Part shown: piece after piece, positions 6,585 through 16,581 of the stretch
How positions within the stretch are numbered: the stretch's first letter is position 1
How the letters are laid out: every line of letters starts with the position of its first letter
DNA from: Pseudomonas aeruginosa
Lineage (GTDB): Bacteria > Pseudomonadota > Gammaproteobacteria > Pseudomonadales > Pseudomonadaceae
Direction of reading: 5' to 3'
Length of the DNA stretch: 32,000 bases
NCBI RefSeq assembly: GCF_001457615.1
Contig: NZ_LN831024.1
Location: 1,470,001 to 1,502,000 of the forward strand
The notes under the pieces: generated by a model
The model's database searches: none
Seen by the model: the letters and a program-made list of their open reading frames with translations, nothing else
What the model was told of the DNA's origin: nothing
Position numbers and translations under genes: made by a program

Positions 6585-7340
6585 TCAGACCAGGTCCAGG
6601 TGAACCTTGTGCTGTGCCATCAGGCGGGCGATGGCGGCGGGCGGCGGGCTGTCGCTGATGACCCGGTTGACCAGCGAGATCGGTCCCAGGCGGACCACCG
6701 CGTTGCGCCCGAACTTGCTCGAGTCGGCGGCCAGGAACACTTGCCGCGCGTTGTCGATGATCGCCTGGGATACGCGCACTTCCTGGTAGTCGAAGTCGAG
6801 CAGGCTGCCATCCTCGTCGATGCCGCTGATGCCGACCAGGGCGAAGTCGACGCGGAACTGCTGGATGAAATCCACCGCGGCCTGGCCGACGATGCCGCCG
6901 TCGCTGCGTACGGTGCCGCCGGCGACCAGCACTTCGAAGTCTTCCTTGGCGCTGAGGGTGGCGGCCACGTGCAGGTTGTTGGTGATGATCTTCAGATTGC
7001 GGTGGTTGAGCAGGGCGCGGGCGATGGCCTCGGTGGTGGTGCCGATGTTGATGAACAGCGAGGCGTTGTCCGGCACCAGGCTGGCCACGGCTTCGGCGAT
7101 GCGCTGCTTCTCGTCACGCATCTGGTCGGCGCGCATGGTGTAGGCGGTGTTCTCGATGCTCGAATCGTAGGCCGCACCGCCGTGGTAGCGGCGCAGCAGT
7201 CCCTGTTCGGCGAGCTGGTTGATGTCGCGGCGGATGGTCTGCGGGGTGACCGCGAACATCTGCGCCATCTCCTCGATGCTCAGGTAACCGCGCTCGCGGA
7301 CCTCCTCGATGATGCTTTGCTGTCGGGGGGGCAGGTTCAT
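6585..7340 (-). CDS. glpR: DeoR-family glycerol-3-phosphate regulon repressor
   Basis: Internal ATG at 7340 of track ORF 6585..7466 gives 251 aa beginning [56 protein letters not shown], a DeoR helix-turn-helix followed by a sugar-phosphate-binding C-terminal domain. It sits between glpD and glpK. Confidence 0.93.
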
Positions 7341-7545: not shown

Positions 7546-9102
<1,557 letters not shown>

Positions 9103-13206: not shown

Positions 13207-13271
13207 GGGCCGCTTCAGGAGGGGGGATGACCTCGTGCATGCCAGACCTCCACATACCGAAGCCCTGATCC

Positions 13272-13353
13272 GTAGGGTGAATAACCGCTTGCGGTTATCC
13301 GCCGCTTATCCGGGAGTATCGGCGGATACCGCCTGTGGCGGTATTCGCCCTAC
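13272..13353. repeat. REPIN-like doublet: two inverted REP hairpins separated by a spacer
   Basis: GTAGGGTGAATAACCGCTTGCGGTTATCCGCCG - 15 nt - CGGCGGATACCGCCTGTGGCGGTATTCGCCCTAC. Its reverse complement matches the doublets at 15471-15551 and 15700-15780, so this copy is in the opposite orientation. Confidence 0.85.
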
Positions 13354-13588
13354 AGGCCCTGGAAACACCGGACAGCTCCCCCGGACATTTCCGCAGGCTC
13401 TCTCAGAAGCCCGGGAATTGGATAAAAACCCAGTAGGAGGATGATGGAGGGGCCGGCAAATCCATCCCGCAGGGACAGGACCGAACGGCACTGCCCTCTA
13501 TTTTCTGAGGGCAAAAAAGACGCGGGCCGCAGGTGCGGGAACACCTACGACCCGCTAACCACAAACCAGCTTATAAAGGAGCTGACCC

Positions 13589-13903
13589 ATGGCTAAGCCG
13601 AATGATACGTCCAACCCCGAGGTAACAGAATCGTCCCCCCGCTTCGTCCCGCTGCTACCCACCTCCCAGGCCGACATGTGTCCGCGTAGCGCCACCCTGT
13701 ACGTGGACACCCATGCACTCCCCACGCACTTGTTCGACAACGCGAAAGTGCGCTTGAGGTCGGCGATCAACATCCTGGCCATGACCCGTTTGCTCGATGA
13801 GAAAGAAGAGCCCGGCGGCACCCTGGCCTACATCAACGGTGCGTTGCTGTCGCTGCTCAGCGATGCCTTGTCCGAAATCGAGGCGGGCCACCCGAGCCTG
13901 TAG
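13589..13903 (+). CDS. Hypothetical 104-aa cytoplasmic protein directly upstream of the CRISPR leader
   Basis: Strong SD (AAAGGAG) lies 7 nt before the ATG at 13589. G/C at third codon positions is about 80 percent by hand count, which is host-like. It is followed by a stem-loop. The N-terminal third looks disordered (Pro/Ser/Thr-rich) and the C-terminal two thirds look helical. No motif that I can assign to a family. Confidence 0.7.
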   Translation: MAKPNDTSNPEVTESSPRFVPLLPTSQADMCPRSATLYVDTHALPTHLFDNAKVRLRSAINILAMTRLLDEKEEPGGTLAYINGALLSLLSDALSEIEAGHPSL

Positions 13904-13922
13904 CGCCGCTCCCTGGCGCGAC

Positions 13923-13947
13923 GCCCCCGGCCTGGCCGGGGGCTTTG
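13923..13947 (+). terminator. Stem-loop terminator candidate after the 104-aa ORF
   Basis: GCCCCCGGC-CTG-GCCGGGGGC has a 9-bp perfect GC stem followed by TTTG. The U-tract is short, hence only moderate confidence. Confidence 0.55.
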
Positions 13948-14172
13948 CGGCATCGCCATCACAAGACCTTTCGCGCCCGAACGGCACGCTTGATCGCCGT
14001 CCCGGTCCTCGCGAAACGGCCGCCAATTGCCCGAAGCTTCCGACCCTTTTTTCGGACGATTTCTTACGCCCTTATAAATCAGCAAGTTACGAGACCTCGA
14101 AAAAAGAGGGTTTCTGGCGGGAAAAACTCGGTATTTCTTTTTCCTTCAAATGGTTATAGGTTTTCGGGGCTA
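13948..14172 (+). promoter_or_regulatory. CRISPR leader
   Basis: The last ~130 bp directly 5' of repeat 1 (about 14040-14172) are conspicuously AT-richer than the surrounding DNA. Candidate sigma70 promoter: TTCGGA (14051-14056), 16 nt, TATAAA (14073-14078). IHF-consensus-like AATCAGCAAGTTA (14077-14089) matches WATCARNNNNTTR. Leader placement agrees with repeat orientation and with the degenerate repeat at the far end. Confidence 0.75.
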
Positions 14173-15028
14173 GTTCACTGCCGTATAGGCAGCTAAGAAA
14201 GCTAGTTCGTCAGCAAGAAGAGCGGCCCGCTAGTTCACTGCCGTATAGGCAGCTAAGAAATTGCTGGCGCCGCCGGTGAGCTTCGCGTACTCGTTCACTG
14301 CCGTATAGGCAGCTAAGAAAAAATAAAGAGTGCCTTTCTTACTGCTGATCAAGTTCACTGCCGTATAGGCAGCTAAGAAATGGTCGTCTCGCAATCCGCC
14401 TCGGCCGCTGGCGTTCACTGCCGTATAGGCAGCTAAGAAACGGTAGAGACGTCGGTGAGCGCTGCGATCTGCGTTCACTGCCGTATAGGCAGCTAAGAAA
14501 GCAATCGATCAGGCTATGACCGCCGAAGCCTAGTTCACTGCCGTATAGGCAGCTAAGAAATCGACGTTGCCGACCCGCGGCCGCGCCCGGTTGTTCACTG
14601 CCGTATAGGCAGCTAAGAAATCGGCCAAGGCTCCGGCATCGAGCACGATGCCGTTCACTGCCGTATAGGCAGCTAAGAAATTGAGGAACAGGCGCGCTAC
14701 GTCCGCCGCGAAGTTCACTGCCGTATAGGCAGCTAAGAAATTGATGATGCCGTCCTGCTGTTTGCCGGCGATGTTCACTGCCGTATAGGCAGCTAAGAAA
14801 TACGGGCAGTCACGGCGAAAGGCACTCAGCGAGTTCACTGCCGTATAGGCAGCTAAGAAATCGCGCAATGATTTCAGCCGCGGAGCGCATAGGTTCACTG
14901 CCGTATAGGCAGCTAAGAAAATAGATAACACGTGTGACCGCGACCACTACCGGTTCACTGCCGTATAGGCAGCTAAGAAACTCAAGAAAGAGCAGAACGG
15001 CCAGCTTGCGCCGTTCATTGCCGTGTAG
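14173..15028 (+). CRISPR. Type I-F CRISPR array: 14 identical 28-bp repeats, 14 unique 32-bp spacers, plus a truncated 15th repeat
   Basis: GTTCACTGCCGTATAGGCAGCTAAGAAA starts at 14173 and recurs every 60 bp through 14953 with no repeat SNPs. It carries the Cas6f/Csy4 hairpin CTGCC-GTATA-GGCAG and the CTAAGAAA 5'-handle sequence. The terminal repeat at 15013-15028, GTTCATTGCCGTGTAG, has 2 mismatches and ends inside the hairpin loop. This is the canonical P. aeruginosa (Yersinia-subtype) I-F repeat. Confidence 0.99.
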
Positions 15029-15430
15029 TCCCGTAGGGCGAATGCCGCCATAGGCGGTATCCGCCCTACGGATCGGGTTCCTGGCATCCACGAAGTGAGG
15101 CTTGCCCTCCAAGTGGTGGGGCGGCAAACCCGCCCCGTCAGGAGGCCGAGCGGAATCGTTGCGGAGGGGGACGAGTGGCAGGATGCCGCGAGAGCCGCCT
15201 CGGTCCACGAAGGACCGTGGCGGCGTGCCGCCGGGAGCAACGATGCAGCGAGGGCACCCCAGCCGAGAAGCGGCTGGGGCCGGATGCCGGGGCGAGTCTT
15301 TTGGTTCCTTTTGGACGCTTGCAAAAGGAACTCGCCTGGGAAGGCGAAACAAGAGGCCAAGGCAGGCACAGAAAATAGCTTGACCACCAAACATGACGCC
15401 CGCTCAAGCGCTAAGCAACAGCGCCCCCCT

Positions 15431-15451
15431 CACTGCCGTGTAGCTAAGAAA
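15431..15451 (+). repeat. Partial CRISPR repeat fragment between composite units 1 and 2
   Basis: CACTGCCGTGTAG-CTAAGAAA is repeat positions 4-16 fused to positions 21-28. The GCAG of the 3' stem arm is missing, so the Cas6f hairpin cannot form. Confidence 0.85.
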
Positions 15452-15917
15452 TCGCGAGCGATATAGTCCCGTAGGGCGAATACCGCCATAGGCGGTATCC
15501 GCCGATGCACTGGAGAGCCGGCGGATAACCGCAAGCGGTCATTCGCCCTACGGATCGGGCTCCTGGCATGCCCTCCGAGTGGCAGGGCGAGTCTTTTGGA
15601 CGCTTGCAGAAGGAGCTCGCCTGGAAAGGCGAAACAAGAGGCCAAGGCAAGCACGACAAGCAGCTTGAGCAGCAAACATGAAGCCCGCTCGAACGTCCCG
15701 TAGGGCGAATACCGCCACAGGCGGTATCCGCCGATGCCCCGGACAGCCGGCGGATAACCGCAAGCGGTTATTCGCCCTACGGATCGGGCTCCTGGCTTGC
15801 CCTCCGAGTGGTGGGCGAGTCTTTTGGACGCTTGCAGAAGGAACTCGCCTGGAAAGGCGAAACAAGAGGCCAAGGCAAGCACGACGCCCGCTCAAGCGCT
15901 AAGCAACAGCTTCCCCC

Positions 15918-15937
15918 CTTAGTGCCGTGCAGGCAGC
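15918..15937 (+). repeat. Degenerate CRISPR-repeat-like fragment at the end of composite unit 3
   Basis: CTTAGTGCCGTGCAGGCAGC compares with GTTCACTGCCGTATAGGCAGC. The 3' arm GGCAGC is retained, the CTAAGAAA tail is lost, and there are several substitutions and one deletion. Confidence 0.6.
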
Positions 15938-16059
15938 GACGGGAGCTGGGGGCCAGTCACGCATTCACGGCCCGCCAGGCAGTCCCCGTGCACCCGGTGC
16001 CGAAACGCCACCTTCGTGCCCTGCGTCATGGCCAATGCTCCACGGCAAGTCGCTACCCC

Positions 16060-16482
16060 TCAGTACCCATCCGCCACCGGTGCCAGGTAGAGCCCGCCCG
16101 CACCGAGGGTAATGCGTAGGTTGCGGATCTCTCCGGCGCGCAGGGTCAGGGTCTGTCCGGCGAGGATGGTCATGCCGTTCCGGCAGGCGTCGCCAGGACC
16201 GTTCGGCGCAAGACGCACGTCCACCGCGCCGGGTTGCAGGTTCAGGGCCAGGCTGGCGCCCGGTTGCAGGTTGCCGACCAGTTCGTCGTGGACGTACAGG
16301 CCGACATCGCAGGCAGTGCCGGACTCGACCCGCTCGCGGGAAACGTTCAGCACCGCATAGCCGATCGGCGCCGGGTCGGGTTGCGCCCAGCCGCCGCTGG
16401 CCGGTTGCGGGTCCGCGGCGAGCGCCGGGAGGGCGCAGGCCAGGGCAGCGGTATGGAGCAGCGGGCGAAGGATGGGGAACAT
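16060..16482 (-). CDS. Hypothetical exported protein (about 140 aa, Sec signal peptide)
   Basis: The ATG at 16482 is internal to track ORF 16060..16557. MFPILRPLLHTAALACALPALAADPQP is a signal peptide with an ALA-AD cleavage site. The mature part is Gly/Leu/Asn-rich and looks beta-rich. It lies downstream of the cytochrome b561 gene on the same strand. Confidence 0.7.
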   Translation of the reverse strand: MFPILRPLLHTAALACALPALAADPQPASGGWAQPDPAPIGYAVLNVSRERVESGTACDVGLYVHDELVGNLQPGASLALNLQPGAVDVRLAPNGPGDACRNGMTILAGQTLTLRAGEIRNLRITLGAGGLYLAPVADGY

Positions 16483-16581
16483 GGCGGGCCTCGGCGGCGG
16501 GGGGCGTAAGGAAAAGCTTGGCCGAAGCCGGGGCCCGGGACAAGTCGGGACGGGCATCCGCGTGCCCGTCCGTCGCTGGGG

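Follow-up and report, generated by a model that had tools for sequence, protein, structure and literature searches.

How does a CRISPR array come to end in the middle of a repeat, joined to a palindrome of another family? The question is raised by a 32,000-nt stretch of Pseudomonas aeruginosa DNA (NZ_LN831024.1, positions 1,470,001 to 1,502,000; hereafter the window), in which 14 full type I-F repeats are followed by a 16-nt repeat stump (15013-15028) fused to a REP hairpin and then by three REP-bearing units. We compared this arrangement with 26 other alleles of the locus and one P. paraeruginosa allele. The far end of the array is old and decayed, its REP stretch occurs in all strains examined, and its history reads as one of ordinary recombination, not of a palindrome jumping into a repeat. 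The feature as a whole is probably the fossil trailer end of CRISPR3, an isolated type I-F array of P. aeruginosa, at an ancient site reshaped by repeat-repeat and REP-repeat recombination. An exotic-looking picture in which REPs invade CRISPR gives way to an ordinary and testable account of array decay and recombination.

An isolated type I-F array at the CRISPR3 locus

The array lies in a REP-rich intergenic region of varying length between a PhzF-like gene and an ORF of 140 amino acids, in the ybaK-mmsR neighborhood. A YbaK-type (tRNA_edit) gene on the left and an AraC-type regulator and an aldehyde dehydrogenase on the right match the position described for CRISPR3; FGGY, PhzF-like, and cytochrome b561 genes are further neighbors. 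The convergent 140-aa ORF, placed by gene calls at 16061-16483 on the minus strand, bounds the region on the right, with its 3′ end toward the units. As we found no cas genes beside the array, either among the ORFs between 4.8 and 20 kb of the window or in gene calls covering 5-7 kb on either side in other strains, CRISPR3 is an isolated array.

CRISPR3 has been described in a preprint (Malaluan and Dy, 2026, PMC13142298), after earlier notices (PMC7344871, PMC3634792), and is active in strain ATCC 10145 (PMC13142298). The locus in the window agrees with the published one in its ybaK-mmsR position, its repeat, and its CRISPR2-like leader and upstream region. The preprint makes no mention of the trailer or the terminal repeat; new here are the trailer, the cut terminal repeat, the REP boundaries, and the vestigial repeats of array-less strains.

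The 14 full repeats (14173-14980, plus strand), identified by a repeat search and Rfam, are separated by 13 spacers. The 28-nt repeat, GTTCACTGCCGTATAGGCAGCTAAGAAA, recurs with a 60-bp period and unique 32-nt spacers, and all copies have the loop GTATAG. Each matches the Rfam family CRISPR-DR4 (RF01317) at 46.5 bits, compared to a gathering score of 35, and the full repeat folds into the Cas6f hairpin (-8.6 kcal/mol).

The array ends in a truncated repeat joined to a REP

Degenerate terminal repeats and conserved trailer-end ("anchor") spacers are known features of CRISPR arrays. CRISPR3 follows this pattern in that its last repeat is aberrant and its last spacer is common to all alleles, while leader-end spacers differ. 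However, its last repeat is not merely mutated: it breaks off at position 16, where a REP is attached. The anchor spacer (CTCAAGAAAGAGCAGAACGGCCAGCTTGCGCC, 32 nt, 14981-15012, plus strand) was present in every CRISPR3 allele seen, with one C/T polymorphism. It is followed by the stump, R1t (GTTCATTGCCGTGTAG, 15013-15028, plus strand), which has a G-type loop and ends just past GTAG, with both the 3′ stem and the 8-nt handle missing. A sequence-only reading of this DNA had noticed that the terminal repeat stops at 15028 and joins a REP hairpin, and this is what we found: the stump runs directly into TCCCGTAGGGCGAATGCCGCCATAGGCGGTATCCGCCCTACGG, which folds into a strong hairpin. This REP_B hairpin (15029-15077), delimited by repeat families and folding, is tagged at both ends (GTAG...CTAC); a REPIN that has collapsed is its most likely identity. 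When the TAG before it is counted in, 39 of its first 40 nt agree with the start of unit 2.

As RNA, the stump did not fold into a Cas6f-type hairpin, so the anchor spacer would be unable to yield a normal crRNA and is probably non-functional. The 3′ end of the precursor may be stabilized by the REP hairpin. Since a scan for plus-strand terminators found none after the REP, we do not claim it as an intrinsic terminator.

All 10 of the other complete array-positive alleles had this same stump/REP junction and anchor spacer, indicating a single old event, while their penultimate spacers differ. Aligning the locus across array-positive and array-less strains had been expected to reveal the ancestral terminal repeat, but an intact copy was present in 0 of these 10 alleles. 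On this view, no repeat of the array is older than the stump, which would have been fixed a single time along with the anchor spacer; later growth would have been at the leader end only. In one allele (L078), the seven newest repeats have the loop GTACAG, older repeats have GTATAG, and the stump has GTGTAG, indicating that repeat variants spread from the leader end. We considered whether a "333-aa ORF" in this allele was an insertion sequence and rejected it as spurious, since it had no Pfam match and spans the array. A metagenome scan for the stump/REP junction returned two contigs, both from the CRISPR3 locus, and no other genomic context.

The terminal repeats of cas-adjacent arrays are full length (GTTCGCTGCCGTCTAGGCAGAACCACCC, and another variant with a 6-nt insertion). 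We rejected the CRISPR2 trailer as the source of the junction, because its degenerate repeat is full length, its last spacer differs, and it lacks a REP. The cas6f-side trailer, located via Cas6f, was also rejected as the source of the stump/REP junction or of a 15-nt stretch described below; its terminal repeat is full length with the 6-nt insertion, and it contains no REP and no similar trailer sequence.

REP-led units and repeat fragments form the trailer

The REPs have the structure CC-GTAG-GGCGAATACCGCC...GGCGGTATCCGCC, an imperfect palindrome with 12-13-bp stems and a fifth-position mismatch, which places them in the GTAG-24 family of P. aeruginosa (Di Nocera et al., 2013, PMC3733652). 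Inverted dimers of two stem variants, REP_A and REP_B, occur at 13264-13356, 15467-15559, and 15696-15788 and are GTAG-24 REPINs (Bertels and Rainey, 2011, PMC3116915); the REPIN fold has a free energy of -60 kcal/mol (z = -7.1). While these elements share their tag, stem length, mismatch, and heterodimeric arrangement with the published ones, here REPs are recombination end points that flank a CRISPR module and the heads of a tandem unit, and we obtained no evidence of transposition. All eight REP half-sites in the window lie at the CRISPR3 locus. Further copies occur at the CRISPR2 locus and on P. aeruginosa plasmids.

The three REP-bearing units proposed from the sequence do align with one another, but they are not built alike: units 2 and 3 bear the full inverted REP pair, whereas unit 1 bears a single collapsed hairpin. 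The non-REP part of unit 1 (15078-15429) contains an expanded insert, a minus-strand terminator-like hairpin, and an E segment with a C-rich tract (15398-15429). Unit 2 (15467-15694) consists of a REPIN (15467-15559) and a non-REP part (15560-15694); the unit closes with a shortened E segment and has no repeat fragment. Unit 3 (15695-15916; REPIN, 15696-15788) lacks segment D and ends in E and the C-rich tract. Homology of the E segment to the last spacer of CRISPR2, suggested by a common CAACAGC, was rejected as not significant, since 19-26% of shuffles scored as well.

Repeat fragments had been noticed at 15431-15451 and near 15919-15937, and both are present. The first, R2, was located by a repeat-fragment search and consists of TCACTGCCGTGTAG and CTAAGAAA with the intervening GCAG deleted; with the next 15 nt, TCGCGAGCGATATAG, it occupies 15430-15466 (plus strand). 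R2 itself (15430-15451), with CACTGCCGTGTAG-CTAAGAAA at 15431-15451, is the repeat without its GCAG. Its contiguous matches to the repeat span 13 + 8 bases and take in the exact 3′ handle, and it is the sole match in the window at three or fewer mismatches, with 0 expected in shuffles. The second, R3 (15917-15944, plus strand), is a degenerate repeat-like 28-mer, CCTTAGTGCCGTGCAGGCAGCGACGGGA, that contains TTAGTGCCGTGCAGGCAGC and keeps a 4-bp remnant of the hairpin. R3 agrees with 19 of the 28 positions of the G-loop repeat, the highest count in the trailer (P about 0.0035, 2000 shuffles); the rest of the window reached at most 17/28. The suggestion that repeat-like sequence was co-duplicated with the units also held up: there are exactly two occurrences of GCCCGCTCAAGCGCTAAGCAACAGC-NN-CCCCC, one (15398-15429) directly followed by R2 and the other (15886-15917) by R3.

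One explanation is that the resemblance is fortuitous or intrinsic, with R2 and R3 not derived from CRISPR and the motif CACTGCCGTG belonging to the unit itself. R3 taken alone, at 19/28, is compatible with this explanation, as is the presence of the same E segment before both occurrences of the motif. However, the contiguous matches of R2, handle included, have an expectation of 0 by chance, the internal units end without the motif, and no other copies of the unit were found in the limited sequence searched. We regard this explanation as extremely improbable. The best reading of R2 and R3 is as vestiges of I-F repeats that predate today's arrays, and the 230-400-bp units are trailer sequence that has been duplicated. 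Thus, of the suggestion that the trailer is an array remnant whose spacers were replaced, the remnant repeats stand and the replaced spacers do not.

The non-REP part of the unit was found at the CRISPR3 locus only, in a limited body of sequence that included no complete P. aeruginosa chromosome. A contig scan for GGCGAAACAAGAGGYCAAGGCA gave 0 matches, and a search with the PhzF-like protein gave P. paraeruginosa and more distant species and no P. aeruginosa. As a P. aeruginosa representative seems to be absent or masked, the zero in the contig scan is weak evidence.

Array-less strains and a sister species carry trailer sequence

Unit 1 and R3 are retained in 13 array-less alleles, 12 of which also contain R2. 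R2 was additionally present in L021, and R3 in every P. aeruginosa allele examined. In all 15 array-less P. aeruginosa alleles, a REP hairpin occupies the same spot as in array-positive ones. In the array-less P. paraeruginosa allele, unit 1 is followed by an R2 that lacks the same GCAG, and this in turn by the 15 nt and a REPIN. Since the genes flanking this allele are 90-93% identical to those of the window, its differences reflect orthologous divergence; R3 is missing from this single outgroup allele because the R3 region is deleted there. More distant Pseudomonas loci (L022-L047) contained no units, repeats, or E segment, and an outgroup search via homologues of the 140-aa protein gave two partial matches only.

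As array-less strains and the sister species keep a vestigial I-F repeat, the site is an old CRISPR location rather than a naive target of recent transfer. The units, R2, and R3 would be resident sequence that predates today's arrays, at a site where I-F repeats would already have been present when P. aeruginosa and P. paraeruginosa diverged.

These alleles bear directly on a mechanism put forward by the sequence-only reading, in which the terminal repeat, as a single-stranded hairpin, received a REP or REPIN from a RAYT-type Y1 transposase that cut it after GTAG, capping the array, and more units then transposed or recombined at repeat hairpins. Several features are consistent with such an event. 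The REPs are GTAG-tagged, as expected of the GTAG-24 family (PMC3733652), the stump and R2 both break right past the GTAG of a G-loop repeat, and inverted REP_B copies (13321-13356 and 15030-15065, 92% complementary) bracket the array segment. In addition, according to work cited in PMC3733652, the RAYT of E. coli has single-stranded REP DNA as its substrate and requires GTAG. We found no explicit mention of a RAYT in P. aeruginosa in the REP/RAYT papers examined.

Nevertheless, array-less alleles have a REP at the same position, in front of unit 1, and what is inserted or deleted there is the array segment, not the REP. An empty-site allele was found in 0 of the 10 other complete array-positive alleles. 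Moreover, what comes after the REP is CTACGGATCGGG and unit 1, not the remaining repeat half, GCAGCTAAGAAA, and thus the two halves of a target do not flank the insert. R2 and the units are older than the species split and exist in alleles that have no array, the 5′ flanks of other REPINs are inconsistent (TAG, TAG, AAC, AAC), and GTAG lies 5′ of the hairpin in REPs but inside the hairpin in the CRISPR repeat. The common break position of the stump and R2 can be accounted for by their common descent. The sequence-only reading had itself stated that units and fragments in array-less strains would mean that the events predate the array or are independent of it; as such strains do carry them, we consider transposition into the repeat very unlikely. 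A variant that we likewise find very unlikely treats the array module as a cassette bracketed by the two REP_B copies and attributes its capture, as well as the cuts after GTAG in the stump and R2, to a GTAG-directed Y1 (RAYT-type) enzyme. If true, the REP/RAYT system and CRISPR repeat hairpins would interact directly at the biochemical level, in a way that could mobilize or cap arrays.

The array-bearing segment begins and ends in REPs

A junction alignment of 24 alleles defined a 1762-bp array-bearing segment (13304-15065, plus strand) that is present in array-positive and missing from array-less alleles. Its left boundary is a REPIN (13264-13356), recognized by repeat families and REP pattern matches, in which GTAG-tagged REP_A (13270-13303) and inverted REP_B (13321-13356) are separated by a 17-nt spacer. 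Homology to CRISPR2, the cas1-side array, begins inside this REPIN, and array-less alleles have a single REP_A hairpin in its place. Both ends of the segment fall at TATCCGCC within REPs (13296-13303 and 15058-15065), indicating that gain or loss of the array ran through REP-REP recombination. The candidate junctions of a REP-REP deletion would be TATCCGCC or ATAACCGC. The presence/absence polymorphism of CRISPR3 therefore has exact REP end points, which provide a concrete route for array gain or loss.

As to direction, we favor loss from an old array-positive state. Counting against loss, all array-less alleles share one junction and one SNP (a fixed difference, CCGTAGGG in array-positive and CCGTAGAG in array-less alleles), which also fits insertion into a GGG-type ancestor. 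However, neither array-less alleles nor the CRISPR2 trailer contain anything that corresponds to the right-hand REP_B, so simple insertion into today's array-less allele fails too.

The segment includes an upstream module (13361-14170, plus strand) that is common to CRISPR2 and the cas-less oprD-pvdL loci, as delimited by blastn, module alignment, Rfam, and the preprint (PMC13142298). Within it are a SymR/PtaRNA1-like antisense RNA (13519-13594, minus strand; Rfam), a 104-aa ORF (13589-13903), and an AT-rich leader (about 14020-14172). The 104-aa and 140-aa ORFs had no family match in Pfam, NCBIfam, or PADLOC. By blastn, identity to the CRISPR2 locus was 95% over 1007 nt, and the leader is homologous to that of the cas-adjacent array, with 95-99% identity to CRISPR2 upstream modules.

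Mean identity between strains was 96.8% for CRISPR3 upstream modules, compared to 99.0% for CRISPR2 modules and 98.9-99.8% for flanking genes. Together with the CRISPR3-specific blocks and mosaic pattern of the CRISPR3 modules, this divergence indicates an old locus that has been evolving on its own. The preprint proposed that CRISPR3 is a recent CRISPR2 duplicate spread via mobile elements, argued for horizontal acquisition, and reported a distribution out of step with the phylogeny of cas-adjacent arrays (PMC13142298). Our data instead indicate an old locus with deep allelic divergence, and the far greater diversity of its upstream modules qualifies the published view. Weighing against an ancient locus, the upstream module of the window itself is 99.0-99.4% identical to CRISPR2 modules, which fits recent derivation or gene conversion.

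It is conceivable that the active array arrived later and that the array-less state is ancestral. A CRISPR2-derived module (REPIN, 104-aa ORF, leader, and first repeats) would have been copied or transferred into a ghost-array site, with the left crossover in the resident REP_A and the right one within or beside a vestigial repeat and REP. The start of CRISPR2 homology inside a REP, the lack of a REP at the left site of the outgroup, and the G-type loop of the stump, which cas1-side CRISPR2 repeats also have, are all in line with such an arrival, as are the similarity of the window's module to CRISPR2 and the discordant distribution of CRISPR3 (PMC13142298). However, the right-hand target it requires, a vestigial repeat and REP_B before unit 1, was present in 0 of 15 array-less alleles and was not found in the outgroup. 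Most CRISPR3 modules are 3-5% divergent from CRISPR2 and contain the CRISPR3-specific blocks, CRISPR2 and CRISPR3 arrays have no spacers in common, and the hybrid structure of R2 implies a good repeat upstream of unit 1 before the species split. We judge later arrival to be unlikely, although it deserves consideration.

A proposed recombinational history of the trailer

For an old site reshaped by recombination, we propose the following history. The ancestral trailer would have consisted of the terminal repeat, 15 nt, and a REPIN-led trailer unit, with the degenerate R3 farther distal. Unequal crossing-over between the two repeats would have duplicated the unit and created R2 as a hybrid, with an R3-like 5′ half and a perfect 3′ CTAAGAAA. 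Short-homology deletions between AG and AG and between TAG and TAG would then have removed GCAG from R2 and joined the stump to the REP, and later exchanges between units may have altered their copy number. The unequal-crossover and TAG..TAG deletion steps are reconstructions, as no intermediate allele was found among those compared.

Degenerate repeats also persist without function in ghost arrays such as the cas-less oprD-pvdL loci, which keep a leader and two degenerate repeats. In contrast, R2 and R3 lie beside a live array in some strains, and R2 is conserved across a species boundary.

REP/BIME-mediated duplications and deletions are known, as are REP-based VNTRs used in typing. The copy number of the REP-led unit varies here too, and deletions end in REPs: L072 and L079 contain a natural REP-to-REP deletion allele of 278 bp. 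The unit at CRISPR3 differs in also carrying pieces of CRISPR repeat. Across strains, one to three units follow R2, giving two to four in total, and there is also a minimal one-unit allele. The unit thus behaves as a VNTR, and its copy number is a ready-made typing marker.

CRISPR3 ends in a truncated repeat

The array in the window comprises 14 full 28-nt repeats (GTTCACTGCCGTATAGGCAGCTAAGAAA) between 14173 and 14980 with a 60-bp period, all of which score above the gathering score for Rfam CRISPR-DR4. GC content of the locus is ~67%, and no cas genes were found near the array. An FGGY kinase and a PhzF-like gene lie on its left and a 140-aa ORF and cytochrome b561 on its right; in the wider neighborhood of other genomes, a YbaK-type gene is found on one side, with an AraC-type regulator and aldehyde dehydrogenase on the opposite side. 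The locus is the isolated type I-F array CRISPR3 of P. aeruginosa, which a 2026 preprint describes as active, located between ybaK and mmsR and preceded by a region that is almost the same as the one upstream of CRISPR2, the cas1-side array (PMC13142298). CRISPR3 was described in an earlier paper too. The array and the REP family are already known. The preprint makes no mention of the trailer, the terminal repeat or the REPs (PMC13142298). The REP-bounded indel, the ghost repeats also present in a sister species and how deeply CRISPR3 modules have diverged seem not to have been described before.

After the final 32-nt spacer (the anchor spacer), the 15th repeat ends at GTTCATTGCCGTGTAG (15013-15028), and this stump continues directly into TCCCGTAGGGCGAATGCCGCCATAGGCGGTATCCGCCCTACGG, a strong hairpin. 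Two vestigial repeat fragments follow in the trailer. R2, CACTGCCGTGTAG-CTAAGAAA (15431-15451), is a repeat lacking GCAG, with a chance expectation of 0. R3 lies within a 28-mer (15917-15944) sharing 19 of 28 positions with the G-loop form of the repeat; this is the best repeat match in the trailer (P ~0.0035 by shuffling). A 32-nt stretch, GCCCGCTCAAGCGCTAAGCAACAGC-NN-CCCCC, occurs twice, both times immediately 5′ of a repeat fragment. In all these features, from the cut repeat and REP hairpin to the fragments and the twice-occurring stretch, the anatomy agrees with a sequence-only reading of the region.

The loop base is A in all full CRISPR3 repeats and G in the cas1-side CRISPR2 repeats and in the stump. 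In one allele (L078, 1545-2580), the seven leader-proximal repeats read GTACAG, the older ten GTATAG and the stump GTGTAG. This pattern shows that first-repeat mutations spread at the leader end with new spacers and leave the oldest repeat unchanged, identifying the stump as the oldest repeat. Because the cas6f-side array in one strain (L082) also has an A-type loop, like CRISPR3, we gave the loop base alone little weight. The terminal repeat of that array, beside cas6f (L082, 6740-6840), is full length and contains an internal 6-nt duplication (GTTCACTGCCGTATAGGCATAGGCAGCTAAAAAA).

Folding revealed that the stump cannot form a Cas6f hairpin, and thus no normal crRNA is expected from the anchor spacer. 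That would leave a working array of 13 spacers in the window, the number reported for CRISPR3 of ATCC 10145 (PMC13142298). No T-run was found 3′ of the REP, which at most would stabilize the 3′ end of the precursor.

Array-positive and array-less alleles differ by a REP-bounded segment

Using look-ups with three window proteins and one DNA scan, we obtained 26 further P. aeruginosa alleles of the intergenic region. Ten are complete and array-positive, another array-positive one (L073) is disrupted by a prophage, and 15 are array-less. All 10 complete array-positive alleles have the identical anchor spacer (CTCAAGAAAGAGCAGAACGGCCAGCYTGCGCC) and stump/REP junction but differ in the spacers adjoining the anchor, indicating that the junction arose once. 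In L073, a Mu-like transposable prophage, whose end (...GCGCTTACA) has Com and Mom-type genes adjacent and lies at ~2500-2530 of the extracted region, has inserted 2 nt upstream of the stump/REP junction, splitting the array.

Array-less alleles read ...CCCTGATCCGTAGAGTGAAT(G/A)ACCGCTTGCGGTTATCCGCC|CTACGGATCGGGTTCCTGGCAT..., with one REP hairpin immediately 5′ of unit 1, the first REP-bearing trailer unit. At the same point, array-positive alleles contain an inverted REP pair (13264-13356), an upstream module (13361-14170), the leader, the array, the stump and a second REP (15029-15077), after which CTACGGATCGGG resumes as in array-less alleles. Since the two classes differ exactly there, we define the array-specific segment as 13304-15065 (1762 bp), with TATCCGCC at each end, within the REPs. 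Homology to the CRISPR2 locus starts within the left REP. A fixed SNP also separates the classes (CCGTAGGG in array-positive versus CCGTAGAG in array-less alleles).

Natural REP-to-REP deletion does occur at this locus, as revealed by two minimal alleles (L072 and L079) with intergenic regions of 278-279 bp. In both, the left REP joins that of the last unit at ATAACCGC, leaving no unit 1, R2 or array, and the GGG variant of array-positive alleles is present. A further small REP-internal deletion removes the inverted REP_B core (one of two REP stem variants) from the left REPIN, or inverted REP pair, of L011 (~6690-6720).

Repeat fragment R2 predates the species split

Unit 1 and R3 are retained in 13 of the 15 array-less alleles and R2 in 12. 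As array-less alleles carry the units and fragments, both are independent of the array, an outcome that the sequence-only reading had itself named as one that would refute it. The P. paraeruginosa ATCC 9027 locus (L021) is also array-less, and its left site lacks a REP. In this locus, unit 1 and the E segment are followed by TCTCACTGCCGTATAG-CTAAGAAATCACGAGCGATATAG and a REPIN; R2 has the identical 4-nt deletion and is followed by the identical 15 nt, and the R3 region is deleted. Because flanking genes are 90-93% identical to those in the window, this similarity reflects orthologous divergence and not recent transfer. The presence of R2 in L021 indicates that an I-F repeat with a perfect 3′ handle occupied the site before the two species split. 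None of these elements was found in more distant Pseudomonas species.

These comparisons bear on the proposal, made from the sequence alone, that a REP/REPIN-type element, a substrate of RAYT-type transposases, landed in the repeat hairpin. The REPs are indeed GTAG-tagged, the breaks fall after a GTAG, and inverted REPs flank the array segment on both sides. However, array-less alleles have a REP at the identical place, no empty site was found, the remainder of the repeat is absent 3′ of the REP, the fragments predate the species and REPIN flanks vary. Moreover, the GTAG lies inside the CRISPR hairpin but 5′ of the hairpin in REPs. We therefore regard REP invasion as very improbable. The same reading's alternative, an array remnant, is partly supported, in that the fragments are best read as old I-F repeats.

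How might R2 have formed? The stump and R2 both break directly after GTGTAG. The first 40 nt of the REP following the stump match the REPIN behind R2 at 39 positions. R2 ends in a perfect 3′ handle, beyond which lie 15 nt and a REPIN; the 5′ half of R2 and its upstream sequence parallel R3. We infer that R2 is a hybrid repeat. Since a hybrid repeat and an extra unit are the expected products, we propose that a good terminal repeat crossed over unequally with a distal, degenerate one. GCAG would then have been lost between AG and AG, and later CTAAGAAATCGCGAGCGATATAG from between two TAG copies at the stump; the common break after GTGTAG would reflect descent. These steps are a model, and no intermediate allele was found among those compared.

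CRISPR3 upstream modules are deeply diverged

We compared the upstream module of the window with its counterparts in 14 loci. CRISPR3 modules are on average 96.8% identical between strains (minimum 95.2%), the three CRISPR2 modules 99.0%, and the flanking genes of the same strains 98.9-99.8%. Variable sites fall in mosaic blocks, some CRISPR3-specific and others common to CRISPR2 or cas-less loci, and identity between the window's module and those of CRISPR2 is 99.0-99.4%. Contrary to the simple view of a recent CRISPR2 duplicate, we read CRISPR3 as a probably old, independently evolving locus, at times homogenized by gene conversion.

This deep divergence favors an old array-positive state from which the array was later lost, as do the absence of the right-hand REP_B and stump from every array-less allele and the former good repeat upstream of unit 1 that R2 implies. 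That a CRISPR2-derived module later re-colonized the site is less likely.

The module also contains a SymR/PtaRNA1-like antisense RNA (13519-13594, minus strand; Rfam RF01809, 53 bits, under the gathering score of 61), which has a terminator of its own on the minus strand. The RNA overlaps the beginning of a plus-strand 104-aa ORF (13589-13903) with no family match, an arrangement that looks like a type I toxin-antitoxin pair. This arrangement accompanies the leader not only at CRISPR3 but also at CRISPR2 and at cas-less oprD-pvdL loci. In the latter (L012, L013 and L020, ~7580-7670), the ORF and leader are kept and followed by two very degenerate repeats, e.g., GTTCACCGCCATATAGACAGTGGACAAG. 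Sequence related to the RNA region is present on P. aeruginosa and Burkholderia plasmids.

REPs and trailer units

The REPs have GTAG at one end and 12-13-bp stems with a mismatch at the fifth position, pair as heterodimers of the two stem variants and fit the GTAG-24 family described for P. aeruginosa (PMC3733652). Sub-threshold matches to the Rfam sRNA P33 (RF02404; 24-34 bits versus a gathering score of 45) fall on REPINs, at 15481-15578 and 15710-15807 (minus strand) and 15021-15140 and 13257-13343 (plus strand), which suggests that the P33 family is REPIN-derived.

Unit copy number differs between strains, and several alleles lack R2, since unit 1 passes directly into the next unit. The rest of the window, CRISPR2 loci and plasmids contain no copy of the unit's non-REP part, which was seen at this locus alone; plasmid matches are confined to the REPIN part. 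A one-genome-per-species scan gave no matches, but as the collection apparently lacks P. aeruginosa itself, the case for uniqueness is weak. On the minus strand, segment C of each unit contains a hairpin with a T-rich tail, resembling a terminator (15331-15348 and 15844-15861). The convergent 140-aa ORF has this orientation as well, and so the 3′ region of that gene may be the source of the units.

At the CRISPR2 locus L016 (6335-6790), the module is immediately preceded by a tandem run of three or four 115-bp REPIN units. Such units also precede it in L012, L014, L019 and L020, and the last of them is the REPIN common to CRISPR3.
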